From an uncultured bacterium (GTDB taxonomy: Bacteria; Lernaellota; Lernaellaia; Lernaellales; Lernaellaceae), in the NCBI GenBank assembly GCA_964534375.1, contig CAZHPN010000138.1:1-17015 (forward strand): DNA of 17,015 bases. Direction: 5' to 3'. A program made the translations under genes and the position numbers. Under the pieces are notes generated by a model, which did not search any database, was not told where the DNA came from, and saw only the letters and a list, made by a program, of their open reading frames with translations. Positions 1-17,015 of the stretch are shown in pieces. The number at the start of each line of letters is the position of its first letter. Positions within the stretch are counted from its first letter, which is position 1.

Positions 1-291
<291 letters not shown>

Positions 292-294
292 AAG

Positions 295-363
295 AGTGGT
301 CAGCGGCCAGTGGTCAGCAACCGGCCGCGCATGCTGGCCACTAGCCACTAGCCACTGACCACT
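295..363. repeat. Inverted arrays of 7-bp tandem repeats (potential hairpin) in the mreB-mreC spacer
   Basis: Left arm AGTGGTC AGCGGCC AGTGGTC AGC (295-318); 14-nt spacer; right arm GCT GGCCACT AGCCACT AGCCACT GACCACT (333-363), made of the reverse-complement unit. Confidence 0.85.
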
Positions 364-373
364 TTGGGTGCCC

Positions 374-1213
374 ATGTTTCGCTTCATCGCCCAACATCGC
401 GTGCTGTTCCTGGTCTTGCTGCTGATCCTGATCGGCCTGCAACTGCTCACGACCGGCCTCAAGCACAAAACCGACGTGGGCTTCTTCGGCAAGGTCGCCC
501 TCGCCGTGTATTCGCCCGTGTATCAAATTCTGTCGTGGCCGTTCCGCTTCGTCGCCGGCGGCCTGGGCGACTACCTGTGGCTCGTCCACGTCAAACGCGA
601 CAACGCCGATCTGCGCCGGCAAAACAACGCCCTGCGCGGCGCCACGACCGAGTGCGTCGAGTTGCGCGCCGAAAATGAGCGTTTGCACAAGCTGCTCCAT
701 ATGCCGACGACCGACCTGCCGCCGGTGGCGAACGCGCGGGTCGTCGGCCGCAGCGACCGCGCCGGCTTCCATATTGCGCTGCTCGACGCCGGCACGCGCC
801 GCGGCGTCGCCAAAGGCATGCCCGTCGTCGCGCCGGAGGGCGTGGTCGGTTTCGTCGCCGCGGCGACGATCAACGCCTCGAAGGTGGTGCTGATCACCGA
901 CGCCAGCGCGCGCGTCGACGTCATCCTGCAACGGACGCGCCGCCGCGCCGTGCTCTTCGGCCGCGGCCGCGATCTCTGCTCGCTGGAATACCTGGACGCC
1001 GACGCCGACGTCGCCGAGGGCGATCTGCTCGTCACGTCCGGCGCCGACGGCGTGTTCCCCAAGGGCCTCGCGGTCGGCTCGGTGAAGAGCGTTTCCCGCG
1101 GCAATTTCGGCGTCGTGATGGCGGTGGAGGCGGCGCCGGCGGTCACGTTCGCGCGACTGGAAGACGTGACCGTGCTGGCCCGCCGCGCGGACGGCCTGGA
1201 GCTGCTGCCGTGA
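374..1213 (+). CDS. mreC: Rod shape-determining protein MreC
   Basis: N-terminal TM helix, coiled coil (ELRAENERLHKLL), GMPVVAPEGVVG, GDLLVTSGADGVFPKGLAVG. ATG at 374 preferred (GTG at 368 is the alternative). Syntenic with mreB and mreD. Confidence 0.95.
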   Translation: MFRFIAQHRVLFLVLLLILIGLQLLTTGLKHKTDVGFFGKVALAVYSPVYQILSWPFRFVAGGLGDYLWLVHVKRDNADLRRQNNALRGATTECVELRAENERLHKLLHMPTTDLPPVANARVVGRSDRAGFHIALLDAGTRRGVAKGMPVVAPEGVVGFVAAATINASKVVLITDASARVDVILQRTRRRAVLFGRGRDLCSLEYLDADADVAEGDLLVTSGADGVFPKGLAVGSVKSVSRGNFGVVMAVEAAPAVTFARLEDVTVLARRADGLELLP

Positions 1214-1734
1214 AAAAGCTGCTGGCCTATCTCGCCGCCGGCCTGTTGGCGCTGGTCGTGCAGGCGCTGTGGCGCACGGTTTTTCACGCCGGCTCGGGCC
1301 CGGAATTCCTGTTCCTGCTGGTGATTTTTTCCGGCATTCATCACCGCCTCTTCGGCGGCCTGCTGCTGGCGTTCGTCTTCGGCTACATCGTCGACGCGCT
1401 CTGGGGGTTGATGCCGGGCCTGTTCGCCGTGCTTTACGCCGCCACGTTCGCGGCCTGCCGGCTGATCGGCCGCCGCTTCTACCAGCGCAGCTTCGCGTTC
1501 CAGTTGTTCATCGTGGGCGCGGCGACGCTGGCGCTGAAAATCGTCGAAAGCGTCGTCGTCACCTGGGTCGAGGCGCGGGCCGATTCGCCGTTGACAATGC
1601 TTTGGCAGGCTTGGCCGGCGGTGTTCTGGAATCTTGCGCTCGCGGCGCCGGCGATGGTGGCGTACGAGCGCTTGGAAAAATCCTTTGCCGACGAATATGC
1701 CAGCCAGTTCCTTGTGCGCCGGGGCATTCTGTAA
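1210..1734 (+). CDS. mreD: Rod shape-determining membrane protein MreD
   Basis: 174-aa, highly hydrophobic multi-TM protein with GLLLAFVFGYIVDAL...G motif. GTGA overlap with mreC; sits between mreC and mrdA. Confidence 0.88.
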   Translation: MKKLLAYLAAGLLALVVQALWRTVFHAGSGPEFLFLLVIFSGIHHRLFGGLLLAFVFGYIVDALWGLMPGLFAVLYAATFAACRLIGRRFYQRSFAFQLFIVGAATLALKIVESVVVTWVEARADSPLTMLWQAWPAVFWNLALAAPAMVAYERLEKSFADEYASQFLVRRGIL

Positions 1735-3614
1735 TGGTTCAGGACGCCGGCCCCCAGAAACTTCATCAGCGCGCCTTCGGCCGGCTGCTGGCGCTGGTCA
1801 CGGTCGTGTTCGCCATCCTGGCCGTGCGCCTGTGGCAACTGCAGATCGTCAAGGGGATGCAGTTCACCGAGCGCAGCGAAGCCAACCGCATGCGTTCGTA
1901 CCGCATCGGCGGCCCGCGCGGCATGATCTACGACCGCAACGGCGAAATGCTCGTCGACAACCGCCCGTCGTTCAGCCTCATTTTCAACCCGGCGGCGATC
2001 GCCGAAAAAGCGCGCCAGAAATTCTTGGAGACGATTTGCCGCGAGGTTGCTTGCGACGTCGAAGTGGCGCAGACGCGCCTGAGCCGGCGGACCGGCGCGA
2101 TCACGCTCAAGGAAGAGTTGACCCGCGACGAGGTGGCGCGTGTCGAAGCGTTGGGCATGTTCTACGAAGGCGCGGAGTATCCGTTGTCGGTCGAGAAAGT
2201 CGGCAAACGCATCTTCAAGTATGGCCCGCTGTTCGCCCACACGATCGGCTACACCGGCGAAATCGACCAGGTCCGTTTGAGCGAGCCGGCCTACGCCGGC
2301 TATCAACCCGGCGACCGCGTCGGGCAGTCGGGCGTCGAGGCCTCGTATGAAGCGTTCCTCCGCGGGGAATTCGGCAAGCTGAAAGTCGAGGAAAATGCTC
2401 GCGGGATGCGCATCCGCTCGCTCGAATTCACCCCCGCTTCGCCCGGCAACAGCCTCGTGCTCAACATCGACCTGGATCTGCAGAAAACCGCCGCGCGCGC
2501 TCTCGCCGGCCAGTCCGGCGCGGTGGTCGCGCTCGATCCGCGCAACGGCCACGTGCTGGCGATCTACAACGCGCCGTCGTTCGATCCGGATTTGTTCACG
2601 CGGCCGCTGGACAAAAAAGACTGGGACGCGCTGTCCGGCGATCCGCGGCATCCGCTGCAAAACAAGGCGATCGCCGGCCTGTACCCGCCGGGCTCGACGT
2701 TCAAGGTGGTCGCGGCGCTGGCCGGTTTGCAGGAAGGCGAGATCAACGCCTCGACGATTTATTATTGCGAGGGCAAATGGAAATACGGCGAACGGGTCTT
2801 TCGTTGCCACAACGAGCACGGCCACGGCGCGATGACCGTCGTGCCCAGCCTCATCCATAGCTGCGACGTATTCTATTACAAATTGTCCGACAAACTGGGC
2901 ATCGAACGGCTCGCCAAGTACGCGCGCATGCTCGGCGTCGGCCGCAAATCCGGCATCGACATCCCCGGCGAGCAGGAAGGCCTGATGCCCGAACCGGAAT
3001 GGAAAACCCGCGTCTACCAAAAGGCTTGGTTGCCCGGCGAAACGTTGATCACCTCGATCGGCCAGGGCTCGGTGGTGATGACCCCGCTGCAGTTGGCGTC
3101 GCTGTACGCCGCCATCGCCAACAAGGGCACGCTGTACCAACCGCAGATCGTCGGCAAGATCACCGCCCCGAATGGCGCGGTGATCCGCGAGATCGCGCCG
3201 GTGGTCGCCGGCCGCGTCGACGTCAAACCCGAACATTTCGCCCTCGTGCGGCAGGGACTGCTGGGCGTTTTCAACGAACCGGGCGGCACGGCCTACAGCG
3301 TGCGCTTGAAAAGCCTGCTCGTCGCCGGCAAGACCGGCACCGCGCAGGTGCGCCGCATGGGCAAGACCAGCACGCACGGCGGCGGCCCCTACGAATTCCG
3401 CGATCACGCCTGGATTGCCTGCTATGCGCCGGCCGACGACCCCGAGATCGTCGTCGTCGCGCTGGTCGAACACGGCGGCTTCGGCGGCCACACGGCCGGA
3501 CCGGTCGCGATGCAGGTGGTCGCCAAATACGCCCAAAAGAGGTTAAAACTGGATCAGGCGCCGACGGAAGCGGAAGCGCTGAAAGGAACCGCCGAGCATG
3601 CGGACGCAGAGTAA
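1734..3614 (+). CDS. mrdA: Penicillin-binding protein 2 (class B transpeptidase)
   Basis: Start at ATG 1734 overlapping the mreD TAA (TAATG). TM then RLWQLQI, PRGMIYDRNG, YPPGSTFK (SxxK), SCDVFYY (SxD), AGKTGTAQV (KTG), DHAW. Confidence 0.96.
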   Translation: MVQDAGPQKLHQRAFGRLLALVTVVFAILAVRLWQLQIVKGMQFTERSEANRMRSYRIGGPRGMIYDRNGEMLVDNRPSFSLIFNPAAIAEKARQKFLETICREVACDVEVAQTRLSRRTGAITLKEELTRDEVARVEALGMFYEGAEYPLSVEKVGKRIFKYGPLFAHTIGYTGEIDQVRLSEPAYAGYQPGDRVGQSGVEASYEAFLRGEFGKLKVEENARGMRIRSLEFTPASPGNSLVLNIDLDLQKTAARALAGQSGAVVALDPRNGHVLAIYNAPSFDPDLFTRPLDKKDWDALSGDPRHPLQNKAIAGLYPPGSTFKVVAALAGLQEGEINASTIYYCEGKWKYGERVFRCHNEHGHGAMTVVPSLIHSCDVFYYKLSDKLGIERLAKYARMLGVGRKSGIDIPGEQEGLMPEPEWKTRVYQKAWLPGETLITSIGQGSVVMTPLQLASLYAAIANKGTLYQPQIVGKITAPNGAVIREIAPVVAGRVDVKPEHFALVRQGLLGVFNEPGGTAYSVRLKSLLVAGKTGTAQVRRMGKTSTHGGGPYEFRDHAWIACYAPADDPEIVVVALVEHGGFGGHTAGPVAMQVVAKYAQKRLKLDQAPTEAEALKGTAEHADAE

Positions 3615-4755
3615 GACCGCCACCGTCTACCAGAGCCCGGACCGCAAGTTCACGGGCCGCATCGATCGCCGGCTGATCGCCAATTTCAATTGGACGCTGC
3701 TGGCGATTTTCGCCCTGATCCTGATCGCCGGCCTCGCCAATCTCTACAGCGCCACGCGGCAGGACGTGCACCACGACAATCGCTTCCTGCTGCAGCTCGT
3801 CTGGATTTTCGTCGGGCTGGTGCTGATGGCGCTCGCCTTTTCGATCAATTATCAGCTTTACAAAAACGCCGCGTTTTACGTGTTCGCCGCGGCGTTGCTG
3901 ATGCTGGCGGCGACGTTCGTCATGGGCTACGTCGCGCACGGCGCCAAACGCTGGCTGATCCTCGGGCCCGTGCGCTTCCAACCGAGCGAGCTGGCGAAAC
4001 TGGCGGTCGTGCTCGCCCTCGCCCGGTTCTTCGCTGAGAACCCGACCGACGAAGGCATGGGCCTGTCGGACCTGCGCTGGCCGCTGGCGATCGCCGGGGC
4101 GCCGATCGCCCTGGTGCTGATCCAGCCCGACCTCGGCACGGCGATCATGCTGGCGTTCATCGCCGCGACGATGATTCTGTTCGTCGGCGTGCGGCCGCGG
4201 GTGTTGCTCGGCGCCGGCCTCGCCGCGGCGGCCGCGGCCCCGGCGATGTATTTCTTCGTGCTCAAGGAATTTCAGCAGAAGCGCATCCGTACGCTGTTCG
4301 ACCCGAGCCTCGACCCGCACGGCGCCGGCTACCATATTCAACAGTCGCTGATCGCCATCGGCTCCGGTCAGTTGTTCGGCAAGGGCTGGGGCCACGGCAC
4401 GCAGGCCAGCCTCGAATTCCTGCCCGAGAAACACACCGATTTCATCTTTTCGGTGCTCGCCGAGGAATGGGGCTTTGTCGGCGGCCTGATCGCGTTGGCG
4501 CTGTTCTTCGCGCTGATCGTCTGGTGCATCAACATCGCCATGGAATCGAAAGACCATTTCGGCTGCCTGCTGGGCGTCGGGCTCGCCGCCTTCATCTTCT
4601 GGCACGTCGCCGTCAACATCGGGATGGTGCTCGGCATCCTGCCCGTCGTCGGCGTGCCGCTGCCCTTCATGTCATACGGCCGGACGTCGCTGCTGACGAT
4701 GATGATCGCCGTGGGCATGCTGCTGAACATCTCCAGCCGGCGGTATATGTTTTAG
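3598..4755 (+). CDS. rodA: Rod shape-determining SEDS glycosyltransferase RodA
   Basis: GAKRW, FQPSELAK, QPDLGTA, GYHIQQSLIAIGSG, FLPEKHTDFIFSV, GVPLPFMSYG. Follows mrdA. Exact start codon uncertain. Confidence 0.96.
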   Translation: MRTQSKTATVYQSPDRKFTGRIDRRLIANFNWTLLAIFALILIAGLANLYSATRQDVHHDNRFLLQLVWIFVGLVLMALAFSINYQLYKNAAFYVFAAALLMLAATFVMGYVAHGAKRWLILGPVRFQPSELAKLAVVLALARFFAENPTDEGMGLSDLRWPLAIAGAPIALVLIQPDLGTAIMLAFIAATMILFVGVRPRVLLGAGLAAAAAAPAMYFFVLKEFQQKRIRTLFDPSLDPHGAGYHIQQSLIAIGSGQLFGKGWGHGTQASLEFLPEKHTDFIFSVLAEEWGFVGGLIALALFFALIVWCINIAMESKDHFGCLLGVGLAAFIFWHVAVNIGMVLGILPVVGVPLPFMSYGRTSLLTMMIAVGMLLNISSRRYMF

Positions 4756-6970: not shown

Positions 6971-9900
6971 TTATTCGGGCGCCGGCGCGCAGCAGCGGAA
7001 GCCGATCAGGTAGCTCTTGGAACTGGGCGCGGCCGACATCCGCACCGCGCACCGGGCGCCCCAGTCGGCGTCGTCGACGCCGCCGCCCTTGAGGATCGGC
7101 GAGCCCTGCCCCGGCGTTCCTGTCCATTCGCGCGCGGCGCCGGACATATCATAGATGCCGAAAGTCGAACGGCAGCCGGCCGCCTGCCCGGACGCGGTCA
7201 GGTAACGCTTCTGGCCGTCGGCGATCTGCGTCGCGCAGACGTTCGGCTTGTATTCGTTGCCGTACGGATACCGCTGATTGCCGGGCCCTTTGCAGGCGCG
7301 TTCCCATTCGGCTTCGGAGCACAGCCGCTTGCCCTGCGACTCGCAACTGGCCTCCGCATCCTGCCAGGCGATGTTTGTTTTCGGCGGCGCCCCCGGCTTG
7401 TTGGGATATTCGTAGAGATCCACGCAATACGCCTGGACGAGGGTTGGCGTGTTGGTTTTTTCGCCGGACGTGCGCAACGGGTCATCGGGCGAACTGCCCA
7501 TGCGGAACGAGCCGGCCGGGATGTAGCGCATGCCCGTCGGGCAGGTCTTGGCGACGGCCGCCGCGGGCGCCGGGACCGGCGTAGCCGCCGCCGCTTGTTC
7601 CTTCGCGCTCTGGGCCTTGGCGCGCAGCCCGGCGAGCGCGGCGTTGTTCGGGTCGGCGAGCAACCCGTCGTCGGCCGCGGCCATGGCGTTATCCCACTGC
7701 GAGTTCTTGATGCCGGTCTGCGCGTCCTGGGTCTGGCGGGCCACAATGTCCTTGCGCGCTTTGGCCGCCGCGTCGTTGGTCGGCTGAATCCGCTCCAAGT
7801 CCTCGATCGTCGACAGCGCGCAACTGCCGGCGGGCCTCACGTAGACTTTATGCTTGATGTACCACTGCAATTGGGTGGTCAGCTTGGCAAGCCGTTGCGG
7901 ATCGGGTTGGCTCCCCAACCCGGCCTGCGCCTTGGCAAGATATCCCGCGAAGGCGGCGTCGGTCGGGCGAATCTGCAAGCCCTGCTGCGCCAATTCAAGC
8001 GCCGGCGCATATTGCTGATTCGCCAGCGCCTGATCGGTGCGCGCGGCGAGATCCTTCAGCATCGTGCGGCGGGCTTGCTCCGGATAGGCGTTTTGCGCGT
8101 CGAGCTGTTCGATCTGTTTCACCAGCGCCAGCGCGTTTTCCGCCGCCGGTTTGACGTACTGCTTCGTGGCGATCAACCCGTCGGCCTGGGCGACCAGCGC
8201 CGCAATCTTTTCCGCCGCCGACGGCGCAGCCGGCGCAGCCGGCGCTTCGGGCGACGGCTCGGGCGCGGCGGCGGGCGGGGCCGCCTCGACGACGGGCGCG
8301 GGCGGCGGCGCTTTTTGCACGGGCGGCGGCGGATTCGCGCCGTTGAACCAGCCTTCCTGGTAGCCGAAAAATCCGGCGATCGCGGCGCCGGCGAGAACGA
8401 TGATGAGGGTCGCGACCCATAGCGCGCGGCGGCCGGTCGGTTTGGCGACGTGCTTCGGCGGTTCGATCCGTCTGGCCGGCGCTGGGGCGACGTACGGCGC
8501 GGGCGTTTCTTCCAGTTCCCTGGCCGATACATCCTTGTGGGCCAGCAAATCCACCAAATTGACCGGCTGGGACGCGGACGGCTGCGGCGCGCGACGGTCG
8601 TGCTTGAATTCGGCGGCAATGGCCGCCCCTTCGGCCTGCGCGTGTTCGACGGCGGAGAATTCCCGCGGCGCCGGCTCGGGCGCGATCGCCGGTTCGGCGG
8701 GCGGCTCGGCTTTCGCCGTCCATTCCTCGGCCGCGGGAGCTTCGGCGACAGATTCGGTTTCGGCGTCGATCTCCGGCGGCGCCGCGAGCGGCTCGAGCGG
8801 TTCGCCGAGCGCCTCTGCCAGCGGCGGCAGTTCTGGTTCCGGCGCGGTTTCGACCGTCGCTTTCAGCGGCGTCTCGATAGCCGGCGCCGGCTCGGGCTCC
8901 GGCGCAACCGGCTCGACGGCGTGCGCCAGCGCCTCGGATTCAACAACAGATTCCGGCGCGGCCGTCTCGATCTCCTCGGCGGGCAACTCGGCGGCCGGCG
9001 ACGCTTCGATTTCCGACGCGACAGGCTCGATGGCCTCCGCCGCCGCTTCGGACGCAACGACGGCTTCCGCCGCCTCCTCTGCCGGCGCGGCAAGCCACTC
9101 CGCGTCGAACGGCGTTTCGGGTTCCGACGGGGCCGGCTCGACGGTTTCCGCAAGCGGCGCGGTTTCCGCGGGAGTCTCGATTTCCGGCAAGGCCGGTTCG
9201 GCCACCGCCGCGATCGGCTCGGGGGCGACGACCGGCGCCGCCGCCTCGGTCGCTTCGGCGAGCCACGCCGCGTCGAACGGCGTTTCGGGTTTCGGCAAAA
9301 CCGGTTCGGCGGTTTCCGCCGGGAACGCGGACGGCTCGGCGGGCTCGGTCGTTGCGTCGACGCCGGGCAAGGCCGGCTGTTCGGTCGCCGGTTCGTCGAA
9401 CAAATGCTCGCCGAGTTGCCGGTCGGCCGGCGCGGGCATTTCCGGCGGCAATTCGGCCGGCGGTTCGAGCGACGGCAATGCGGATTCTTCGGCGAACAGC
9501 GGCTCGTCGACGGCGGGCGCCCGCGGCGGGGGCGTCGTGAGCGGCGCCTCTTCGCCGAACAGGCCGACGCCGGCTTCGGACAATTCCTGCGCCAACGCCT
9601 CGTTTTCGGCGGCCGACGGCTCGTGCGCCGCCGCGCCGGATTCGACATCGGCGAACATTTCGGCCGCCTCGGCCGCCGACGCGCCGACGTCCGCCGCGAC
9701 CTCCTCGAACGTCGCCGCGCCGCTTGCCGCTGTTTCCGCGACGGCGAAAACGCCCTCGCCGTTGGTCGGCGCCGCGCCGCGATCGAGCGCTTCGCTGCGG
9801 GCGATGGCGCCGTCGAGCAGATGCGCGAAGGCGGCGTCTTGCTCGGCGGGCCGCGCGGCAGCTTCGGCGCTGAGATCGACTGCCGGGACGGCGGGCGCCG

Positions 9901-10729
9901 CGCCGGCGATTTCGACGAGCCGTTCGCGCAACTCGGCGTATTTGGCGAAACGCTGTTCCGGCTTGGTCGCCATCATCTTGGCGAGCAGGTCATCCCACTC
10001 TTCCGGCACGGTGCGGTTGACTTGCGACGCCGGGCGGAAGCCCTTGCGCGGCGGCTTGCCGGTGAGGAATTCGTACAGCAGCGCGCCCAACGAATACTGG
10101 TCGGCGCGCGCATCGATTTTGCCGCCGCAGCCGACAAATTCGCAGGCCAGATAGTAGTACGGCGAGCCCGCCGAAAGTTGCAGGCTGGCGTACTTGCTGA
10201 AACTCAGCAGACAGCAAACGCCCATGTCGGTCAGATAGAATGGCGAGTCGTCGGGCAGCGGCCCGCCGGGCGGCATTTCGGCGATCAGCACGTTCGAGGG
10301 TTTGATGCCGCCGTGCACCGTCCCGTGCGGCAACTGTTCGAGGATGGTCACGATCCGTTCGGCGATCAGACCGGCGGTCGCCGGATCGCCGAGGCGGCCG
10401 TCGTCGGCCATGGCGTCGAACAGTTTCTGGAGGCTTGATCCATCGACGTACGGCAGCTTCAGGAACTTCATGCCGTCCGCTTCGCCGATCTCCAGCGGGC
10501 GGACGATGGCCGGATGCAGCGCCGTTTTCTCCGCGTAGACTCCCTTGAGTTTCTCGACGCCGATGTGCGCGGGAATGACACGCGGGAGAAACACCTTCAG
10601 CGCGTAGTACTTCCCGTTCTCGATCACACGGAAGACCTCGGCCATCGGCCCTGAGCCGACAAACTCCTCGACCGCGAATCGGCGCGCGAATGTGGAGCCG
10701 ACGGATATACCGGTCTTTGTGGCGGCCAT
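6971..10729 (-). CDS. Large membrane protein: Ser/Thr kinase-like (probable pseudokinase) domain, acidic Pro/Ala/Glu linker, TM helix, helical repeats, FGE-sulfatase (SUMF1) domain
   Basis: ATG 10729 with GAGGGGG RBS. Kinase motifs VGSGPMAEVF, YALK, VHGGIKPSNVL, LTDMG, ADQYSLGALLYEFLTGKPP. TM at ~8360-8425. C-terminal CPTGMRYIPAGSFRMGS, GKRLCSEAEWERACKG, GIYDMSGAAREWT, GFRCC are typical of FGE-sulfatase domains. Confidence 0.9.
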   Translation of the reverse strand: MAATKTGISVGSTFARRFAVEEFVGSGPMAEVFRVIENGKYYALKVFLPRVIPAHIGVEKLKGVYAEKTALHPAIVRPLEIGEADGMKFLKLPYVDGSSLQKLFDAMADDGRLGDPATAGLIAERIVTILEQLPHGTVHGGIKPSNVLIAEMPPGGPLPDDSPFYLTDMGVCCLLSFSKYASLQLSAGSPYYYLACEFVGCGGKIDARADQYSLGALLYEFLTGKPPRKGFRPASQVNRTVPEEWDDLLAKMMATKPEQRFAKYAELRERLVEIAGAAPAVPAVDLSAEAAARPAEQDAAFAHLLDGAIARSEALDRGAAPTNGEGVFAVAETAASGAATFEEVAADVGASAAEAAEMFADVESGAAAHEPSAAENEALAQELSEAGVGLFGEEAPLTTPPPRAPAVDEPLFAEESALPSLEPPAELPPEMPAPADRQLGEHLFDEPATEQPALPGVDATTEPAEPSAFPAETAEPVLPKPETPFDAAWLAEATEAAAPVVAPEPIAAVAEPALPEIETPAETAPLAETVEPAPSEPETPFDAEWLAAPAEEAAEAVVASEAAAEAIEPVASEIEASPAAELPAEEIETAAPESVVESEALAHAVEPVAPEPEPAPAIETPLKATVETAPEPELPPLAEALGEPLEPLAAPPEIDAETESVAEAPAAEEWTAKAEPPAEPAIAPEPAPREFSAVEHAQAEGAAIAAEFKHDRRAPQPSASQPVNLVDLLAHKDVSARELEETPAPYVAPAPARRIEPPKHVAKPTGRRALWVATLIIVLAGAAIAGFFGYQEGWFNGANPPPPVQKAPPPAPVVEAAPPAAAPEPSPEAPAAPAAPSAAEKIAALVAQADGLIATKQYVKPAAENALALVKQIEQLDAQNAYPEQARRTMLKDLAARTDQALANQQYAPALELAQQGLQIRPTDAAFAGYLAKAQAGLGSQPDPQRLAKLTTQLQWYIKHKVYVRPAGSCALSTIEDLERIQPTNDAAAKARKDIVARQTQDAQTGIKNSQWDNAMAAADDGLLADPNNAALAGLRAKAQSAKEQAAAATPVPAPAAAVAKTCPTGMRYIPAGSFRMGSSPDDPLRTSGEKTNTPTLVQAYCVDLYEYPNKPGAPPKTNIAWQDAEASCESQGKRLCSEAEWERACKGPGNQRYPYGNEYKPNVCATQIADGQKRYLTASGQAAGCRSTFGIYDMSGAAREWTGTPGQGSPILKGGGVDDADWGARCAVRMSAAPSSKSYLIGFRCCAPAPE
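9093..9291. repeat. Intragenic direct repeat, 31 bp x2 at 168-bp (56-aa) spacing
   Basis: AGCCACTCCGCGTCGAACGGCGTTTCGGGTT (9093-9123) and AGCCACGCCGCGTCGAACGGCGTTTCGGGTT (9261-9291), one mismatch. Encodes PETPFDA(A/E)WL twice. Confidence 0.85.
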
Positions 10730-10961
10730 TTGTCCCCCCTCGGTTGCCACGAACTGGCGATACATGAAATCACAGTGCGCGTGTTCAAGCAAGCGGCGAA
10801 GCGGCGCCGAAAGACCATGGATTCCAGCCTTTTTTTCGCGGCCCGCACGCGGCGAGCAGCGGCCGCCGTGTTGCGAAAAACTCTGGCGTGGCGACCGACG
10901 GGCGGCTCCGTTTGCCCCTTGCATGAAATCGCGTTCGCAATCCAGTCTTTTCGAGAGAAAG

Positions 10962-11078
10962 TGTTCAAATCGAATACAGTTCGGCGTTCAATTTCGATGC
11001 ACGCGTAATATGCTGATATCACACGCATTTCCCCGACGCCGGCGTCGCGATGCCATTTAAGCGTATGAAAATCATACA
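10962..11078. promoter_or_regulatory. Candidate upstream activator sequences for a sigma-54 enhancer-binding protein (three YGT-N11-RCA sites)
   Basis: TGTTCAAATCGAATACA (10962-10978), CGTTCAATTTCGATGCA (10985-11001) and CGTATGAAAATCATACA (11062-11078, containing the perfect inverted repeat GTATGA-AAA-TCATAC). They lie ~125-240 bp upstream of the -24/-12 element. Confidence 0.5.
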
Positions 11079-11201
11079 GACTGACGTTTTTGCGGCCGGG
11101 CAGATTACGCGTCGCAAAGAACCGGCTTGCCCACCGTAACTATTGATTAAGTAGCGGTATTTCCCGACAGCGGACGCGAATTTTTCCGCCGGGCTGTTGT
11201 T

Positions 11202-11217
11202 TGGCACGATCCTTGGA
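11202..11217 (+). promoter_or_regulatory. Sigma-54 (RpoN) -24/-12 promoter
   Basis: TGGCACG-ATCC-TTGGA versus consensus TGGCACG-N4-TTGCW. The -24 box and spacing are perfect, with one deviation at -12 (GG for GC). Ends 43 bp before ATG 11261, which has a GGAGG RBS. Confidence 0.72.
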
Positions 11218-11260
11218 AGGAATCCGCCTGGCGCAGCAATTTCAAGTTCGGGAGGCGATC

Positions 11261-11920
11261 ATGGTTGCGTTTTCGGTTTTCTTGTTCTTTCTCGTCGCGA
11301 TTCTCGCCAGCATTCTCTCGGAAATCTGGCATCGCCGGCGCGCGGGCGCGCCGGAAGAAAAGCCGGACGCGGCGACGACCAGTCGTTCGGCGGCGCCGGC
11401 AATCCCGGCCGGCATCTTGTTCAATCGCAGCCACGCCTGGGTGAAGGTCGACAACGCCGCGGTCGCCGTGGGTCTGGACGATTTTGCCCAACGGTTCGCC
11501 GGCCGGATCGACCGGATCGAGATCCCTCGCGTCGGCGCCGACGTCAAAAAAGGCGAAACGCTGTGGCGCATCCATTTCGGCGGACGGTCGGTGACGCAAT
11601 TGGCGCCGATCAGCGGCCGGGTGGTGCAGATCAACCGGATGGTGGCCGGCGACCCGTCGCTCGCCGACCCGGCGTACGAAGACGGCTGGGTGGTGAAGAT
11701 GCTGCCGCAGTCGTTGACTGAAGAGACCTCGCGCCTGCTGAACCGCGACGGCGTCAAGAAGTGGCGCGACATCGTCCGCACCCGCCTGCTAGGCGAAATG
11801 ACGCCGCAATTGGGGCCGGTCGTCGGCGACGCCAGCGAGATCCGGCGCGGCCTCGGCAAGGAAATCGATGCGCAGCACTGGAACCAACTCGTCGATTTTC
11901 TGTTTCACGAAAAGGATTAG
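11261..11920 (+). CDS. Membrane-anchored glycine cleavage H-like protein #1 (no canonical lipoyl-Lys)
   Basis: GGAGG RBS then ATG 11261. N-terminal TM followed by RRR. GcvH-fold motifs SHAWVKV, VGLDDFAQ, LAPISGRVVQIN, DPAYEDGWVVKM. The ESVK lipoylation turn is replaced by HFGGR. Confidence 0.85.
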   Translation: MVAFSVFLFFLVAILASILSEIWHRRRAGAPEEKPDAATTSRSAAPAIPAGILFNRSHAWVKVDNAAVAVGLDDFAQRFAGRIDRIEIPRVGADVKKGETLWRIHFGGRSVTQLAPISGRVVQINRMVAGDPSLADPAYEDGWVVKMLPQSLTEETSRLLNRDGVKKWRDIVRTRLLGEMTPQLGPVVGDASEIRRGLGKEIDAQHWNQLVDFLFHEKD

Positions 11921-11933
11921 GGAAGGAGGAGCC

Positions 11934-12029
11934 ATGTCGGCCATCGGGATTTTGTTGTGCATCGTGTTCGCGATCGCCGCGGATCGTTATCGCGCCGGTC
12001 GCCGGGCGGCCGCCGCCGGGAACCGTTGA
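11934..12029 (+). CDS. Small 31-aa single-pass membrane peptide (below the ORF-track cutoff)
   Basis: Strong RBS AAGGAGGAG just before ATG 11934. Translates as MSAIGILLCIVFAIAADRYRAGRRAAAAGNR*, a hydrophobic segment plus basic tail, and fills the gap within the operon. Confidence 0.6.
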   Translation: MSAIGILLCIVFAIAADRYRAGRRAAAAGNR

Positions 12030-12066
12030 CCCAATTCGCAATTTTTAACAACGGAGGGACAATCCT

Positions 12067-12987
12067 GTGAAGATCAGCCGCCGAAATTTCCTCAAGTCGA
12101 TCGTCGCCGCCGGCGGCGCCTCGCTCGTGCCGCTGGGCTCGAAGGCGGTCGCCGAGCCGAAGTTGGACGGCTATCCGGACCGCTTCGGCTGCCTGACCGA
12201 CGTGACCCGCTGCGTCGGTTGCCGCGCGTGCGAGGAGGCGTGCAACCAGGCCAACAAGCTGCCGAAGCCGGATGTTCCTTTCGACGACCAAACCGTGGTC
12301 GAAACCCAGCGGCGGACTTCGGCCAAGGCGTACACGGTGGTCAATCGGTACGGGAACTCGAAAACCGGCGAGCCCGTGTTCCGCAAGATTCAGTGCAATC
12401 ACTGCAACGAGCCGGCGTGCGCGTCCGCCTGCCTCGTGAAGGCGTACACGAAAACGCCGGAAGGCGCGGTGGTTTACAACCCTGACATTTGCCTGGGTTG
12501 CCGTTACTGCATGCTGGCCTGCCCGTTTTCGGTTCCGGCGTACGAATATGACAATGCCTTTTCGCCGCGCATTCGGAAATGCAGCCTTTGTTTCGACCGC
12601 ATCAAAACGGGCGGCGTTCCGGCGTGCGTGGAGGCCTGCCCGACGGAAACCCTCATTTTCGGCAAACGGAAAGACCTGATCAAAATCGCGCGGGACCGCA
12701 TCGAAAAAGAACCCGATAAATATCTCGACCACATCTACGGCGAGCACGAGGTCGGCGGCACGAGTTGGCTGTACATCTCCGGCGTGCCCTTCGAGCAGGT
12801 CGGGTTGAAGACCGACCTGGGGGACCGCCCGTATCCGGAATTGACGCGCGGCTTCTTGTCGGCCGTGCCGCTGGTGTTGACGCTCTGGCCGGCGCTGCTC
12901 GGCGGCTTTTATCTCTTTTCGAAAACGCGGGACGACGCGGCGGAAACGCGCGAAGCCCGCCCGGCGACGGAGGCGCGGCGCAAATGA
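12067..12987 (+). CDS. Tat-exported 4Fe-4S dicluster electron-transfer subunit, HybA/HmcB/NrfC-like
   Basis: Twin-arginine signal SRRNFLK. Four Cys groups: CVGCRACEEAC, CNHCNEPACASAC, CLGCRYCMLACP, KCSLC...PACVEACP. YLDHIYGEHEVGGTSWLY and a C-terminal TM helix as in HybA/HmcB. GGAGG RBS. Confidence 0.9.
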   Translation: MKISRRNFLKSIVAAGGASLVPLGSKAVAEPKLDGYPDRFGCLTDVTRCVGCRACEEACNQANKLPKPDVPFDDQTVVETQRRTSAKAYTVVNRYGNSKTGEPVFRKIQCNHCNEPACASACLVKAYTKTPEGAVVYNPDICLGCRYCMLACPFSVPAYEYDNAFSPRIRKCSLCFDRIKTGGVPACVEACPTETLIFGKRKDLIKIARDRIEKEPDKYLDHIYGEHEVGGTSWLYISGVPFEQVGLKTDLGDRPYPELTRGFLSAVPLVLTLWPALLGGFYLFSKTRDDAAETREARPATEARRK

Positions 12988-14219
12988 CGCAGGACATCGG
13001 CAAACTTTCCCGAAACGGCGCGACGACGGCCTGGATCTCCGAAAAATTTCTCTTGGGACTGTCGTGGCGGGATTACGTCAAAACGCTGATTACGCCGCTC
13101 AACGCCGCCGCCGGCCTGATCCTGGCGATCGGCCTGCCGTTTATCGTATTGCGATATTGGCGCGGATTGGGCGCGGTGACGGCCGCTTCCGACGACCAAC
13201 CGTTCGGCCTGTTTCTGAGTTGGGGCCTTTTCTCGGGGGTGCCGATGGCCTCGACCGGCTTTCTGCTGGCGACGGCCGTTTACCTGTTCGGGCTGCGCGA
13301 CTACAAGCCGCTGGTGCGGCCGGCGGTGCTGACCGGCTTCGTCGGCTATTTCTTCGCCGTCGTGTTCCTGCTCATCGACCTGGGCCAACCGTGGCGCCTG
13401 CCCTACCCGATGATTCGTTCGTTCGGCACGGGCTCGGTGCTGTTTCTCGTCGCGTGGCACGTGGCCCTGTACCTCTCGGTCCAATTCCTCGAATTTTCGC
13501 CGGCGGTGTTCGAATGGCTCGAAGCGCGGAAGCTGCGCGCCTGGGCGGTCGGCCTGACGCTCGGCGCGACGATCTTCGGCGTGATCCTCTCGACGCTGCA
13601 CCAATCGGCGCTGGGCGCGATGTTCCTGCTGGCGCCGGGCAAGCTGCACCCGCTGTGGTATACGCCCAATCTGCCGGTGCTGTTCTTCGTGTCGGCGATC
13701 TTCTGCGGCCTGTCAGTCGTGATTCTCGAATCGACCGTGATCTACCGCTTGATGCCCAATCGCGTCGATCCGCGCAACTTCCGCGTGATCGACCGGCTGA
13801 CGCTCGGCCTCGGCAAAGCCGCTGCGGTGACGATGTTCGCCTACTTCTGCCTGAAATATCTCTCGGTGGCGCACGATGACAACTGGCGCCATCTGGCCGG
13901 ACCGTACGGGCCGATTTTCCTGCTCGAAACTTTCGGCTTCGTGCTGCTGCCGTGCGTTCTCTACCTCGCGGGCGTTCGCCGCCGCAACGCCTCGGTCGTC
14001 CGGTGGGCGGCGCTGATCACCGTGCCAGGCGTCATTCTCAATCGCCTCAACGTCACGTACCTGGCGCTGAACTGGAACCTGCCGCATCGCGAATTGTTTC
14101 ACGGCCGCGAAATGCTCATCGTCGCCACGGTCGTCACCATTGAACTGCTCGCGTACCGCTGGATCGTCAATCGCCTGCCGGTGCATCGGGAAAGTTCGCG
14201 TTTCGCCGACGACCATTAA
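12984..14219 (+). CDS. NrfD/PsrC-family integral membrane quinone-interacting subunit, HybB/HmcC-like
   Basis: ATGA overlap with the Fe-S gene; multi-TM; GLGAVTAASDDQPFGL, YKPLVRPAVLTGFVGY, DLGQPWRL, LSTLHQSALG, KLHPLWY, GVILNRLNV. Confidence 0.9.
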   Translation: MTQDIGKLSRNGATTAWISEKFLLGLSWRDYVKTLITPLNAAAGLILAIGLPFIVLRYWRGLGAVTAASDDQPFGLFLSWGLFSGVPMASTGFLLATAVYLFGLRDYKPLVRPAVLTGFVGYFFAVVFLLIDLGQPWRLPYPMIRSFGTGSVLFLVAWHVALYLSVQFLEFSPAVFEWLEARKLRAWAVGLTLGATIFGVILSTLHQSALGAMFLLAPGKLHPLWYTPNLPVLFFVSAIFCGLSVVILESTVIYRLMPNRVDPRNFRVIDRLTLGLGKAAAVTMFAYFCLKYLSVAHDDNWRHLAGPYGPIFLLETFGFVLLPCVLYLAGVRRRNASVVRWAALITVPGVILNRLNVTYLALNWNLPHRELFHGREMLIVATVVTIELLAYRWIVNRLPVHRESSRFADDH

Positions 14220-14237
14220 CCGGCGCAGGGAGATTTC

Positions 14238-14975
14238 ATGCACACCCTTTTCGAGTTCATCACCTACACCAAGAGCGTCGAGTATCTGATCGCCGTCGGC
14301 TTTCTCGTTTCGTTCGTCGTCTTCTGGCGCTTCGCCAACGGCGCGAGCGCGGCGCCCGCCCCGCGCACGGCGGCCGCCGGGCTGGCCGGCCGCCTCGGCG
14401 AGTACGTCGGCGGTTTCTTGCTGCCCGAGTCGTATTTCTTCCATCGCGGCCATGCCTGGGTGAAAAACGAGAGCGGCGACCGGGTGGCGGTCGGCGTGGA
14501 CGATTTCGGCCAGAAACTGCTGGGGCGAATCGACGCAGCTTTCCTGCCCCAGGTCGGCGCCGTCCTGTCGCAGGGCGAGCGCGCCTGGACGCTGCACGCC
14601 AACGGCAAGTCCATCGACATGCTGGCGCCGATCGACGGCGAAGTGCTCGCGGTCAACGAAGGCGCCGCCGCCGATCCGTCCGTCATCCAGCGGGATCCCT
14701 ACGGCAAGGGTTGGCTGCTGATCCTGCGCGCGCCGCGCAAACGCGCTTTGCTGCCGGGTCTCTTGTCGGGGATGCTGGCGAAACATTGGCTGGAAGAAGC
14801 GCGCGGCAAATTGTCGCTGAACTCGGGCTACGCGCTCGGCGAGGTCTTGGCCGACGCCGGTCCGGCGCGCGGCGGCATCGCCCAGGCGCTCGATCCCGAA
14901 CACTGGGATCGCCTGGCGCGGGAGTTCTTTTTGACGAATGAGGACGGCGGGGATGAAGCCCGACCGCCCCGCTAG
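14238..14975 (+). CDS. Membrane-anchored glycine cleavage H-like protein #2 (no canonical lipoyl-Lys)
   Basis: GGGAG RBS. N-terminal TKSVEYLIAVGFLVSFVVFWRF TM; FHRGHAWVK, VGVDDFGQKLLG, MLAPIDGEVLAVN, DPYGKGWLL. Lipoyl turn reads HANGK, with Lys one register off. Confidence 0.87.
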   Translation: MHTLFEFITYTKSVEYLIAVGFLVSFVVFWRFANGASAAPAPRTAAAGLAGRLGEYVGGFLLPESYFFHRGHAWVKNESGDRVAVGVDDFGQKLLGRIDAAFLPQVGAVLSQGERAWTLHANGKSIDMLAPIDGEVLAVNEGAAADPSVIQRDPYGKGWLLILRAPRKRALLPGLLSGMLAKHWLEEARGKLSLNSGYALGEVLADAGPARGGIAQALDPEHWDRLAREFFLTNEDGGDEARPPR

Positions 14976-15720
14976 CTTTCACGTGATTCCGGCCGGCGAA
15001 ACGGCGTGCGTCTGGATGCTCGCCGGGGTCGTCTCCTACAAATTGTGCGACCGCGGATACCGCTGCGAGAATTGCCCGCTGGATCGCGAATTGCGCCACG
15101 CGAAGACCGGGCTCGCCGAATCGGCGCCCGACGAGGCGCCCGACGAGGCCGACGGCGCCGCCGCGCCGGCCGGCGGTTCGCTCTTGTTTTTCGCGCGCAA
15201 TCACACGTGGGCGCGGTTCGCGGACGAAGAGCGCGCCGTCGTCGGCTTCGACGATTTCCTCCTGCGGCTGTTCGGCGAGATCGACCGGATCGTGCTGCCG
15301 GCCAAACGCGCGACGGTGCGCCGCGGCGAGCCCCTCGCCATCGTCGTGCAGGGCGCCGACAATTTCGTCGTCGCCTCGCCGCTCTCCGGCACGATCCTGC
15401 GGCTCAACGCGGAAATGCGGCAACATCCCAATTCCGCCCGGGCGAATCCGGCGGCCGGCGGCTGGCTGGCCGAACTCGCGCCGAGCCATCTCTTCGCCGA
15501 AATGGGCGCGTTGCTGACCGGCCGGCGCGCGCTGGCGTGGCAGGAAAACGAAAGCAAAAAGCTGGAGTTGATTGTCGGCACGTTGCCCGCCGCCGAACGC
15601 GAACGGCTCGGGCCGGTCATGCACGACGGCCGCGGCGCCGCCGGCGCCCTGCTCGCGCTCGTCGGCCCCGCCCGTTACGTCAACATTATGCTGTCGTTTC
15701 TTCAGCCGGACGAGCGCTGA
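14953..15720 (+). CDS. Soluble glycine cleavage H-like protein #3 with N-terminal 4-Cys motif
   Basis: Start ATG 14953 (14938 is the alternative). CVWMLAGVVSYKLCDRGYRCENC (C-x12-C-x5-C-x2-C), then NHTWARF, VGFDDFL, ASPLSGTILRLN, GGWLAEL. No Lys at the lipoyl turn (QGADN). Confidence 0.85.
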   Translation: MKPDRPASFHVIPAGETACVWMLAGVVSYKLCDRGYRCENCPLDRELRHAKTGLAESAPDEAPDEADGAAAPAGGSLLFFARNHTWARFADEERAVVGFDDFLLRLFGEIDRIVLPAKRATVRRGEPLAIVVQGADNFVVASPLSGTILRLNAEMRQHPNSARANPAAGGWLAELAPSHLFAEMGALLTGRRALAWQENESKKLELIVGTLPAAERERLGPVMHDGRGAAGALLALVGPARYVNIMLSFLQPDER

Positions 15721-15765
15721 CTCGGCGCGCCGCGTGATGGTTTCGGCGGGATTATTATATCCTTT

Positions 15766-15909
15766 TTGACAGGATCAACAGGATCGACGGGATCAATTGC
15801 CCAACGTTGTCGTTTCGCGAGAAGATGGCGAACGGGCTTTGGGTTTTTCACCGGTCATTGTTCACTGTTCGCTGGTCACCGATCCTGTTGATCCCGTTGA
15901 CCCTGTCAA
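15766..15909. repeat. 29-bp inverted repeat built from 9-bp units (RACRGGATC-like x3), enclosing a 7-bp tandem array, between convergent operons
   Basis: Left TTGACAGGATCAACAGGATCGACGGGATC (15766-15794); right GATCCTGTTGATCCCGTTGACCCTGTCAA (15881-15909); 25/29 complementary. The inner region contains TTCACCG GTCATTG TTCACTG TTCGCTG GTCACCG (15847-15881). Confidence 0.85.
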
Positions 15910-15917
15910 GAAAACGA

Positions 15918-16463
15918 TCATCCGCCCGATCGCCGCAGAAGCTCCTCGTAGGTTTTTTCGCACTGCCGGCACATCTCGCGCGACTTGGCGTCGATCTGTT
16001 CGATGATCGTCGAGGGGTTCATCACGCAAAAAGGGTTGAAGCAGTGGATCAGGCCGAAGGCGTGGCCCAGTTCGTGAATCGCTTCTTTGTACAACCGTTC
16101 CGCGAACTGGTCTTCGTCCGGCGGCATGCCGTAGTTTTCGTTGCGCAGCCGAAAGGTGGACATGACGGCCGCGAGGCCGTCGAGTTGCGCCTCGCCGAAG
16201 AGGAAATCGAAGACCGGCACGAACAGGTCCGCTTCCGTGACGCCCAGAATCCTGGCGGCGTCCGGCGGCGGATTTTCGGTCAGCCGGAGCAGAATCGCCG
16301 CGCCGTGATATTGCTGGCGTTGCGGATCGAACGCGAAGGAAATATCCATGGTCGAGCGCGCGACGGCGACCGGCAGGGAGAACACCCGCTGCAGGACCTC
16401 GGGCAGCGAGGCGAGCAGCGGAATCCGCATGGGGCGGATCAGCGACAAATAAATTCGGCGCAT
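15918..16463 (-). CDS. Archaemetzincin family (peptidase M54) Zn-metalloprotease
   Basis: HELGHAFGLIHCFNPFCVM...C-x2-C, i.e. HExxHxxGxxHC-x4-C-x-M plus a terminal CxxC; FDPQRQQY; DLFVPVFDFLFGEAQ. Confidence 0.92.
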   Translation of the reverse strand: MRRIYLSLIRPMRIPLLASLPEVLQRVFSLPVAVARSTMDISFAFDPQRQQYHGAAILLRLTENPPPDAARILGVTEADLFVPVFDFLFGEAQLDGLAAVMSTFRLRNENYGMPPDEDQFAERLYKEAIHELGHAFGLIHCFNPFCVMNPSTIIEQIDAKSREMCRQCEKTYEELLRRSGG

Positions 16464-16468
16464 GCGGC

Positions 16469-17014
16469 TTATTCTCGCAGGCCGTATTTCTTGATCTTGG
16501 CGTAGAGAGTCGCGCGCTCGATGCCGAGCAGTTCGGCGGCCTGGGCGATGTTTCCCCCGGTTTTGTCGAGGATGCGGCGGATGTGCAGTTGCTCCATTTC
16601 CTCCAGCGAATCGACCGCGGGCAGGCAGCCGCCCTCGTCGAAGGGCAGCGACAGGTCCGCCGCCTGAATGACGTCGCGTTTGGCGACCACCATGGCGCGT
16701 TCGATGACGTTGCGCAATTCGCGGACGTTGCCCGGCCAGCGGTAGCGGCCCAGCACCGACAGCGCCTCGTCGGCAAAGCCGGCGATCGGCTTGCCCATCG
16801 ACTTCGTGAACTTGGCCAGGAAATAGTCCGCCAGCAGCGGGATGTCCGACGGCCGGTCGCGCAGCGGCGGCAAGGCGATCGTGAAGACGTTGAGGCGGTA
16901 ATAGAGGTCTTCGCGGAACCGCCCCTCTTTCACCGCGTGTTCGAGGTCGAGATTGGTGGCGGAAATCACGCGAAAATCGGCCGTGATCAGGTTCTCGCCG
17001 CCCAGGCGCGTGAA
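16469..17014 (-). CDS. Sigma-54-dependent transcriptional activator (NtrC/Fis family), C-terminal part; 5' end outside window
   Basis: FTRLGGENLITADFRVISATN, GRFREDLYYRLNV, PPLRDRPSDI, WPGNVRELRNVIERA, and Fis HTH GGNIAQAAELLGIERATLYAKIKKY. Confidence 0.95.
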   Translation of the reverse strand, partial: FTRLGGENLITADFRVISATNLDLEHAVKEGRFREDLYYRLNVFTIALPPLRDRPSDIPLLADYFLAKFTKSMGKPIAGFADEALSVLGRYRWPGNVRELRNVIERAMVVAKRDVIQAADLSLPFDEGGCLPAVDSLEEMEQLHIRRILDKTGGNIAQAAELLGIERATLYAKIKKYGLRE

Positions 17015-17015
17015 T

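Follow-up and report, generated by a model that had tools for sequence, protein, structure and literature searches.

Lipoyl-less GcvH-fold proteins beside an HmcBCD-like redox module and a candidate sigma-54 circuit in an uncultured Lernaellota bacterium

We analysed a stretch of 17,015 nucleotides (the window), which is the entire contig C138 (CAZHPN010000138.1, assembly GCA_964534375.1) of an uncultured bacterium of the Lernaellaceae, the genome of which is 94% complete and is represented in wetland metagenomes. The system considered here lies between positions 10,962 and 17,015 and comprises an operon encoding three proteins with the fold of the glycine cleavage system H protein (GcvH), named H1, H2 and H3 and called H-like below, around a putative B-C-D core of an Hmc-type redox complex, and, on the opposite strand, genes for an archaemetzincin and a sigma-54 activator. 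In the reading that we prefer, to which we give a probability of about one half, the H-like proteins would be cytoplasmic adaptors that couple the redox state of the B-C-D core to an autoregulatory kinase/sigma-54 circuit.

Gene content of the locus

A first-pass annotation, made from the letters of this DNA, had described a compact plus-strand unit met head-on by an activator-archaemetzincin pair; every gene was found in its place, with 197 nt between the pair and the operon, and the six plus-strand genes (H1, a 31-codon open reading frame (ORF), HmcB, HmcC, H2 and H3) are spaced by 13, 37, -4, 18 and -23 nt. A domain scan of the window agreed that the unit holds no gcvT or gcvP, lipoate ligase, hydrogenase, molybdoenzyme or CxxCH motif. 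The sequence of C138 was recovered again in independent wetland assemblies. The features are as follows.

10962..10978, plus strand: 17-bp palindromic upstream activator site with three-base inverted ends and an 11-base spacer, 240 bp ahead of the promoter
11202..11216, plus strand: sigma-54 (-24/-12) promoter, in which G replaces C at -12
11261..11920, plus strand: H1, N-terminal membrane helix, lipoyl-less GcvH-fold domain and DGG-type tail
11934..12029, plus strand: ORF of a 31-amino-acid hydrophobic/basic peptide with a strong ribosome-binding site
12067..12987, plus strand: HmcB, tail-anchored 4x[4Fe-4S] protein exported by twin-arginine translocation (Tat)
12984..14219, plus strand: HmcC/NhcC-like membrane subunit of the NrfD family, remodelled putative quinone site with Gly81, Leu155 and His159
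14238..14975, plus strand: H2, HmcD helix fused to a lipoyl-less GcvH-fold domain and DGG-type tail
14953..15720, plus strand (alternative start 14938): H3, soluble, four-Cys motif (C19, C32, C38, C41), lipoyl-less GcvH fold and DGG-type tail
15918..16463, minus strand: archaemetzincin zinc metalloprotease with intact HExxH and four-Cys motifs
16469..17015, minus strand: C-terminal half of a receiver/sigma-54 activator, 181 amino acids, ended by the contig edge

GcvH-like proteins without a lipoyl site

Predicted models of H2 and H3 (predicted local distance difference test scores of 89.1 and 80.8) have the GcvH fold: H2 superposes on 1onl with a root-mean-square deviation (rmsd) of 1.5 A over 125 columns, and H3 on 1dxm with a Z of 18.7 and an rmsd of 1.9 A over 128 aligned residues, in a search that hardly covered its four-Cys motif and tail. 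The fold of H1 is given by profile only (GCV_H, 72.6 bits, below the GcvH equivalog cut-offs), behind a helix at residues 1-19. At the lipoyl-lysine column, which is Lys in true GcvH, H1 and H2 have Gly and H3 has Ala, and Lys occurs there in just 12 of the 259 family rows that carry the tail described below (17 rows without it were set aside), so that the description of all three proteins as lipoyl-less, already made in the first-pass annotation, was confirmed. All three fall below the GcvH, not_gcvH and GcvH_rel_desulf cut-offs. Lys124 of H2 lies one residue beyond the lipoyl position, as does a Lys in 65 of the 259 rows; lipoylation needs Lys at the exact position.

The family has its own C-terminal tail of about 45 amino acids, in which the three residues of a DGG motif are conserved at 88, 90 and 94% and a Trp at 94% (259 rows); in the H2 and H3 models the DGG segment is an extended loop of low confidence. 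As had been proposed, H1 and H2 appear to be membrane-linked, each with an N-terminal helix, and because basic residues follow this helix, their H domains are probably cytoplasmic. The four Cys of H3 are present without exception in the 36 aligned rows. A quick tree, calculated from 102 rows without bootstrap, clusters each window protein with its own subtype, the subtypes not being single clades; a recent triplication was thus rejected, and H1, H2 and H3 would be old, distinct paralogues.

Outside the H-like proteins, the DGG motif was seen in 20 loci on small membrane proteins, 21 in all, and at the tails of 6 C subunits. No H1-type protein is encoded in any of the 20 loci with the small DGG protein, and none of the 20 metagenome loci with an H1-type protein encodes the small one, kin inflating both exclusion counts. 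H1 can apparently be reduced to an anchor plus the DGG motif, which therefore points to the motif being a ligand. H3 is replaced in many loci (L001:7501-7725 and L052:6701-6919, among others) by a second small four-Cys protein that has no family match and is encoded alone or as a fusion with an H domain.

The H-like family comprises 1,613 representatives at E values up to 1e-30, some of which may be true GcvH, and its members are routinely annotated as 'glycine cleavage system H protein'. The family being so large and so labelled, metabolic models built from the genomes of many anaerobes probably misread it.

The redox core

The first-pass annotation had taken the Fe-S and membrane proteins for a HybA/HybB-like module; this has to be revised, as the NCBIfam models of HmcB, HmcC and HmcD score above those of HybA and HybB. 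The Fe-S protein passes the HmcB model (NF045715, 458.5 bits, cut-off 420) and has a Tat signal, Fer4 domains, 16 Cys in four cluster motifs and a C-terminal helix. HmcC (NF045714) is the top model for the membrane subunit, at 426.6 bits and below its cut-off of 550, with HybB at 199.4, and residues 2-32 of H2 pass the model of the small hydrophobic subunit HmcD (NF045712, 37.3 bits, cut-off 34). From these scores we assign the redox core to the B-C-D part of the Hmc/Nhc complexes, HmcD being fused to H2. A hydropathy scan of HmcC gave 8 peaks, the available text of PMC6303296 describing the NrfD family with 10 helices, and a PDB sequence search returned no match for this subunit. B subunits that seemed truncated in some relatives were gene-caller artefacts, all being full length.

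A profile scan found neither the 16-heme HmcA nor HmcE or HmcF within the unit. In the genome, HmcA and the NarI family were not above cut-off and dsrA was not found; no genome-wide HmcF search was made. This copy also has no cytochrome, and a tetraheme one is present both in L045, the closest long relative, which has the gene order of the window plus this gene, and in a second copy of the module in the same genome. That copy lies at the ends of C6 and C41 (L003:14364-15601, L004:13939-16833, L005:1-792 and L128) and encodes two H-like proteins, a tetraheme c3-type cytochrome, B and C; its kinase-activator pair is on C349, which shares 55 bases with the start of C41. The term 'orphan' given earlier to the module thus holds for the window copy and not for the genome. 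Two other redox loci were seen in the assembly: G000:C106:6376-9447 encodes the small and large subunits of a Tat-signal [NiFe] hydrogenase and a maturation protease, with no adjoining membrane subunit, and L006:3231-7994 on C212 encodes an NrfC/NrfD pair that is unrelated, accompanied by a Tat protein and a cytochrome with 7 hemes.

To read the quinone site of the membrane subunit, the residues of NhcC listed in the available part of PMC8076601 were placed on HmcC by their spacing from the Asp of the DLG motif, not by direct comparison with NhcC or CbcU sequences. HmcC keeps the proton-path residues Tyr100, Arg112, Tyr122, Asp132, Tyr163, Glu170, Glu177 and His206. Gly81 and Leu155 occupy the positions of D70 and E142 of QrcD, its quinone-site acids according to the available text of PMC6303296, and His159 is new. 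Both acids are replaced in 120 of the 120 closest C homologues, with the His in 119; E. coli HybB retains both, and Glu is retained in 29 of 30 C proteins sampled from the phylum of genome G041 (Myxococcota-like). The 67 C rows that come from H-linked loci divide into 51 with Leu/His, 10 with Glu/Cys and 6 in which the alignment shows a gap or some unrelated residue. The quinone site thus appears to be remodelled in a subclade; the change from Glu to Leu as a mark of all H-linked modules was rejected, some H-linked rows keeping Glu.

Promoter, activator and kinase

The RpoN promoter proposed in the first-pass annotation could not be recognised from the window alone, where the -24/-12 pattern is not above chance (12 matches against 18.85 expected), and it emerged from conservation between operons: 38 of the 43 related leaders carry the pattern no more than 270 nt from their first gene, compared with none of the 43 reverse strands and a shuffle mean of 1.2, the leaders being hand-picked and the pattern set after their inspection. 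The C at -12 is present in only 7 of these 38. Of the 38 leaders, 32 contain a 17-bp palindrome whose spacer is 11 bases long, at 58 sites in total (shuffle mean 2.9, maximum 8), and control spacers of 9, 10 and 12 gave 2-3 sites and a spacer of 13 gave 16 sites in 8 loci, partly nested. The conservation of the -24/-12 element and of the upstream palindrome, compared with the shuffles, points to a sigma-54-dependent operon, and rpoN was found in the genome. The 18 operon-linked activators in which the recognition helix could be read have similar helices, and most of the 21 other activator ORFs of the genome, 6 of which are unreadable, have a different one. Promoter, activator site, activator helix and the receiver-H fusions reported below together uphold the tie to a sigma-54 circuit that had been suggested.

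The beginning of C44 most probably encodes the missing N-terminal half of the activator together with a Cache-HAMP kinase, because the residue ranges match (the activator on C44 ends at about residue 253 and that of the window begins at about 267), a join between contigs that do not overlap, with about 13 codons missing and two paralogous pairs in existence. The activator half on C44 is 78% identical to the activator of L045. The same contig carries a third kinase/activator pair of the subfamily (L127:12447-15697), with the kinase in two ORFs, among repeated lipoprotein genes and with no adjoining protease gene. CxxCH was found in 19 of 37 linked kinases. Three linked kinases (L195:3394-5358, L205:3695-5659 and L201:14630-16690) have, by sequence reading, an N-terminal Fe-S, hydrogenase-like region and may be sensors of molecular hydrogen or of redox state.

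The archaemetzincin passes its NCBIfam model (NF033823, 155.7 bits, cut-off 145) and matches 2x7m, 3zvs and 3lmc in the PDB. The M54 motif, given as HExxHxxGxxHC-x4-CxM-x17-CxxC in the available text of PMC3427221, is present with a 16-residue spacer, like that of 3lmc.

Distribution across genomes and metagenomes

For the metagenomes we kept the best 80 of 408 matches, dropping the window's own sequence. Among the 29 metagenome loci of at least 8 kb, B is encoded in 24, C in 26, two or more H-like proteins in 28 and a cytochrome of three to five hemes in 10; of the regulatory genes, a kinase is encoded in 24, a sigma-54 activator in 26 and an archaemetzincin in 24. Strong H2 matches were found in 6 of 7 genomes of the same family. 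In the phylum of G041, a C-like gene is present in 34 of 151 genomes; tailed H-like proteins were found in 19 of these 34, compared with 1 of the 20 searched among the 117 genomes without C, and of 30 C loci, 12 have an H-like neighbour at a distance of up to 1.5 kb and 18 have none. In the phylum of genome G042, 34 of 151 genomes matched, and 30 H-centred loci were taken from 28 genomes, leaving out five weak tail-less matches and G042 itself: 10 have both halves of the arrangement, 9 an activator without B/C, 5 B/C without an activator and 6 neither, with an archaemetzincin in 18. The phylum of genome G040 comprised one genome only, and a contig scan of genomes gave only 2 loci.

Conserved co-occurrence had been named in advance as a check, and the arrangement does recur across phyla in the 29-locus and 30-locus samples; source names and Atlas taxa include Acidobacteriota, Bacteroidota, Myxococcota, Thermodesulfobacteriota, Gemmatimonadales and WOR-3. 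These counts suggest that the H-like genes track the kinase/activator/protease trio at least as closely as B/C. Two additions are to be made to the first-pass annotation, which had missed the histidine kinase, a constant member, and the cytochrome, common in relatives and encoded in the genome's own paralogue.

Twenty extra regions were chosen mostly for H-like genes away from C; they comprise five HdrA/NuoEF-type clusters, three [FeFe]-hydrogenase-like/anti-sigma operons, three full cassettes, one kinase with two receiver-H fusions, and lone genes, to which we return below. A kinase and an activator accompany the H-like genes in four of the five HdrA/NuoEF-type loci, so that the H-like/kinase/activator/protease set would serve other redox enzymes as well. 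Clusters of HdrA/HdrC/CCG with NuoE/NuoF-type genes were seen in L162, L163, L164, L166, L173, L196 and L201, where a HoxU/NuoG-like subunit ends in a four-Cys motif and an H-like domain in place of its catalytic domain.

The H domain was found in several fusions. Receiver-H proteins were seen in P0119, in P0161, twice in L172 and as Atlas clusters of 58 and 93 members; periplasmic cytochrome-HmcD-H (P0149, P0192), HmcD-H-cytochrome (P0212), tandem H-H (P0121) and HoxU-like Fe-S/Cys/H (L162, L163, L166) arrangements also exist, and PBP_like_2 is attached in 11-33% of the members of two clusters. P0133 (1391 amino acids) carries three tail-less H domains on an FAD-linked oxidase/CCG protein. 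A search for longer homologues, which is weak evidence, gave one unrelated fusion only.

Proposed mechanism and alternatives

According to the adaptor reading, HmcB would face the periplasm and accept electrons from a periplasmic carrier, which may be the small c3/c7 cytochrome encoded in many relatives' operons and would here be supplied in trans. HmcC would be the quinone-side subunit, and HmcD would carry the GcvH-fold domain of H2 into the cytoplasm, where the membrane-anchored H1 and the soluble H3, with its putative four-Cys metal or Fe-S site, would assemble with it, probably via the DGG tails. This assembly would modulate the pair formed by the HAMP kinase and the receiver-sigma-54 activator, and the activator, binding the upstream palindrome, would drive its own operon in a feedback loop, which the archaemetzincin, a fixed member of the regulatory half, may reset. 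The topology of the H domains, the protein contacts, the direction of the signal, the role of the protease and the reading of the site by the adjacent activator are our proposals; gene content, fold, loss of the lipoyl site, conservation of promoter and activator site, co-occurrence and fusions are observed. The adaptor reading draws on the locus counts in both samples, the fusions, the conserved promoter, activator site and recognition helix, the conservation of DGG and its presence on small membrane proteins, the replaced quinone-site acids and the CxxCH of linked kinases; it also gains from the swap of the redox partner to the HdrA/NuoEF type, the H-like/kinase/activator set being kept.

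Several observations weigh against it. The metagenome loci were picked by similarity to H2 and many are kin; 11 of the 30 loci in the phylum of G042 have no activator, and in 8 of the 20 extra regions the H-like gene stands alone. With a Cache domain and without a heme motif, the probable kinase of this system may sense a ligand by itself, and co-location with shared regulation would also fit an operon that is the mere target of a two-component system. The intact proton-path residues and the 16 Fe-S Cys are consistent with real electron transfer. Glu is kept in 10 of the 67 H-linked C rows, and 11 of the 29 Glu-keeping C proteins from the phylum of G041 have an H-like gene within 1.5 kb; therefore, the H link does not require a changed quinone site.

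It is possible, if less probable, that the module is an ordinary electron-transfer complex of the Nhc/Cbc4 kind, the H-like proteins being cytoplasmic structural or docking subunits that replace HmcE/F and hold soluble redox enzymes or aid assembly, while the two-component system only switches the operon on. The fusion of H2 to a subunit of the complex and of HoxU-like Fe-S domains to an H domain in the HdrA/NuoEF clusters would suit such a role, as would the intact proton path and Fe-S Cys, the c3-type cytochrome of the paralogous operon, the Tat [NiFe] hydrogenase on C106, which could feed the complex, and the five loci of 30 with H-like and B/C genes and no activator. It accounts poorly for the receiver-H fusions, for the nine loci of 30 with an activator and no B/C, for an H domain devoid of a cofactor site, for the apparent shrinking of H1 to a helix plus DGG motif and for the 18 of 30 C-like genes that have no H-like gene within 1.5 kb.

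Regulated proteolysis, in which the DGG tails would be substrates or recruiters of the archaemetzincin and cleavage would free an inhibitor of the kinase or activator, is unlikely, although the active-site motif of the protease is intact, its gene was counted in 24 of the 29 long loci and in 18 of the 30 from the phylum of G042, both models show the DGG segment as an extended loop of low confidence, and this segment's motif exists apart from H domains, on small membrane proteins and at the end of 6 C proteins; the protease gene is mostly beside the kinase/activator genes and often on the strand opposite to the H genes.

A role for the H-like proteins as carriers of lipoyl or another covalent group, in glycine cleavage, a lipoate relay or sulfur oxidation like GcvH, GcvH-L or LbpA, is very improbable in spite of the identical fold, of Lys124 and of an assembly with gcvP and no Lys-bearing gcvH, given the 12 Lys in 259 rows, the Arg or other residues equally common at the next column, the lost E-S-x-K context, the scores below all three family cut-offs, the separate short gcvH-type ORFs of relatives and the lack of a ligase or gcv gene cluster recurring in the loci, gcvH itself being probably unassembled here because gcvP begins at a contig edge.

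A broader proposal, which goes beyond the adaptor reading and which we regard as doubtful, is that lipoyl-less DGG-tailed GcvH folds would be new modular signalling adaptors of anaerobes, placed on varied redox inputs (HmcBCD, HdrA/NuoEF, sensory hydrogenases, periplasmic cytochromes or binding proteins), reading each other's DGG and controlling a dedicated kinase/sigma-54 pair; the NrfD subunit of the subclade would then be a sensor that no longer reduces quinone, and in the tails the archaemetzincins of bacteria would have their long-sought substrates. The arrangement suggests how Hmc/Nhc-type complexes outside sulfate reducers connect to gene control and gives these proteases a candidate context and a candidate substrate for the first time, and its conserved promoter and activator site are usable as a direct reporter assay.

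Comparison with known systems

NtrB/NtrC-type sigma-54 systems have accessory modulators such as PII or PspA. The likeness to them is a functional analogy only: a HAMP kinase, a receiver-AAA+-Fis activator, an upstream palindrome, a -24/-12 promoter and accessory proteins in the operon; here, however, the candidate modulators have the GcvH fold, are tied to a quinone module and come with an archaemetzincin. GcvH and its relatives GcvH-L and LbpA are lipoyl carriers. With GcvH, GcvH-L and LbpA the H-like proteins share the barrel-sandwich H fold (rmsd 1.4-2.2 A), whereas they have no lipoyl Lys and have anchors or a four-Cys motif in front, and GcvH has no DGG/Trp tail of about 45 amino acids.

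HybA/HybB of E. coli Hydrogenase-2 is likewise an NrfC/NrfD-type redox module, but the window proteins are under its cut-offs (224 of 263 and 199 of 450), HybB keeps Asp and Glu, and no HybO or HybC hydrogenase subunit was found in the unit or among the recurring clusters of the loci. The Hmc complex of Desulfovibrio vulgaris is composed of HmcABCDEF according to the available text of bioRxiv 10.1101/2023.11.02.564894; the window has its order B-C-D, with B passing HmcB and the N-terminus of H2 passing HmcD, and differs by the absence of HmcA, HmcE and HmcF from the unit, by a GcvH-fold domain on HmcD, by two more H-like proteins and by the replaced quinone-site acids. Nhc (NhcABCD) and Geobacter Cbc4 (CbcSTU) are described, in the parts available of PMC8076601 and 10.1101/2025.04.14.648717, as a cytochrome, a 4x[4Fe-4S] protein and an NrfD-type protein with no catalytic enzyme. 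They resemble the genome's second copy and the 10 of 29 long loci with a cytochrome; the window copy differs in having none, and H-like proteins, kinase and protease are not mentioned for Nhc/Cbc4 in those parts, the main text of PMC8076601 containing no occurrence of 'glycine', 'GcvH' or 'kinase'. In agreement with the first-pass annotation, we found no description of the arrangement in the literature, supplements and most subscription papers being beyond the search, and it is a widespread and apparently undescribed form of the Hmc/Nhc-type modules, to which it adds a new family of candidate adaptors.

Other features of the window

Exact contigs from RNA run X5 cover H1 and H2 as well as the H1-peptide-B and B-C junctions, and none lies over 10500-11371 or the archaemetzincin gene, a pattern that is a weak hint of transcription, DNA carry-over being possible. 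The 31-amino-acid peptide had no family match in a profile search and BLASTP gave no alignment with the ORF of the same length at the same place in L045; short hydrophobic ORFs with a ribosome-binding site that resemble it lie ahead of H1 in 8 further loci. We rejected the idea that it is the leftover of a lost cytochrome, since in L045 the peptide ORF is next to an intact cytochrome gene.

Between the convergent genes, 15768-15910 forms a long imperfect inverted repeat, which is probably a repeated element or a two-way terminator, because the contig depth there rises about tenfold. Divergent from the operon, 6971-10765 (minus strand) encodes a Ser/Thr kinase domain, a long acidic Pro/Ala linker, a membrane helix and an FGE-sulfatase domain, and 1-4755 (plus strand) is by sequence reading an ordinary cell-shape operon with the end of mreB, mreC, mreD, the PBP2 gene and rodA.

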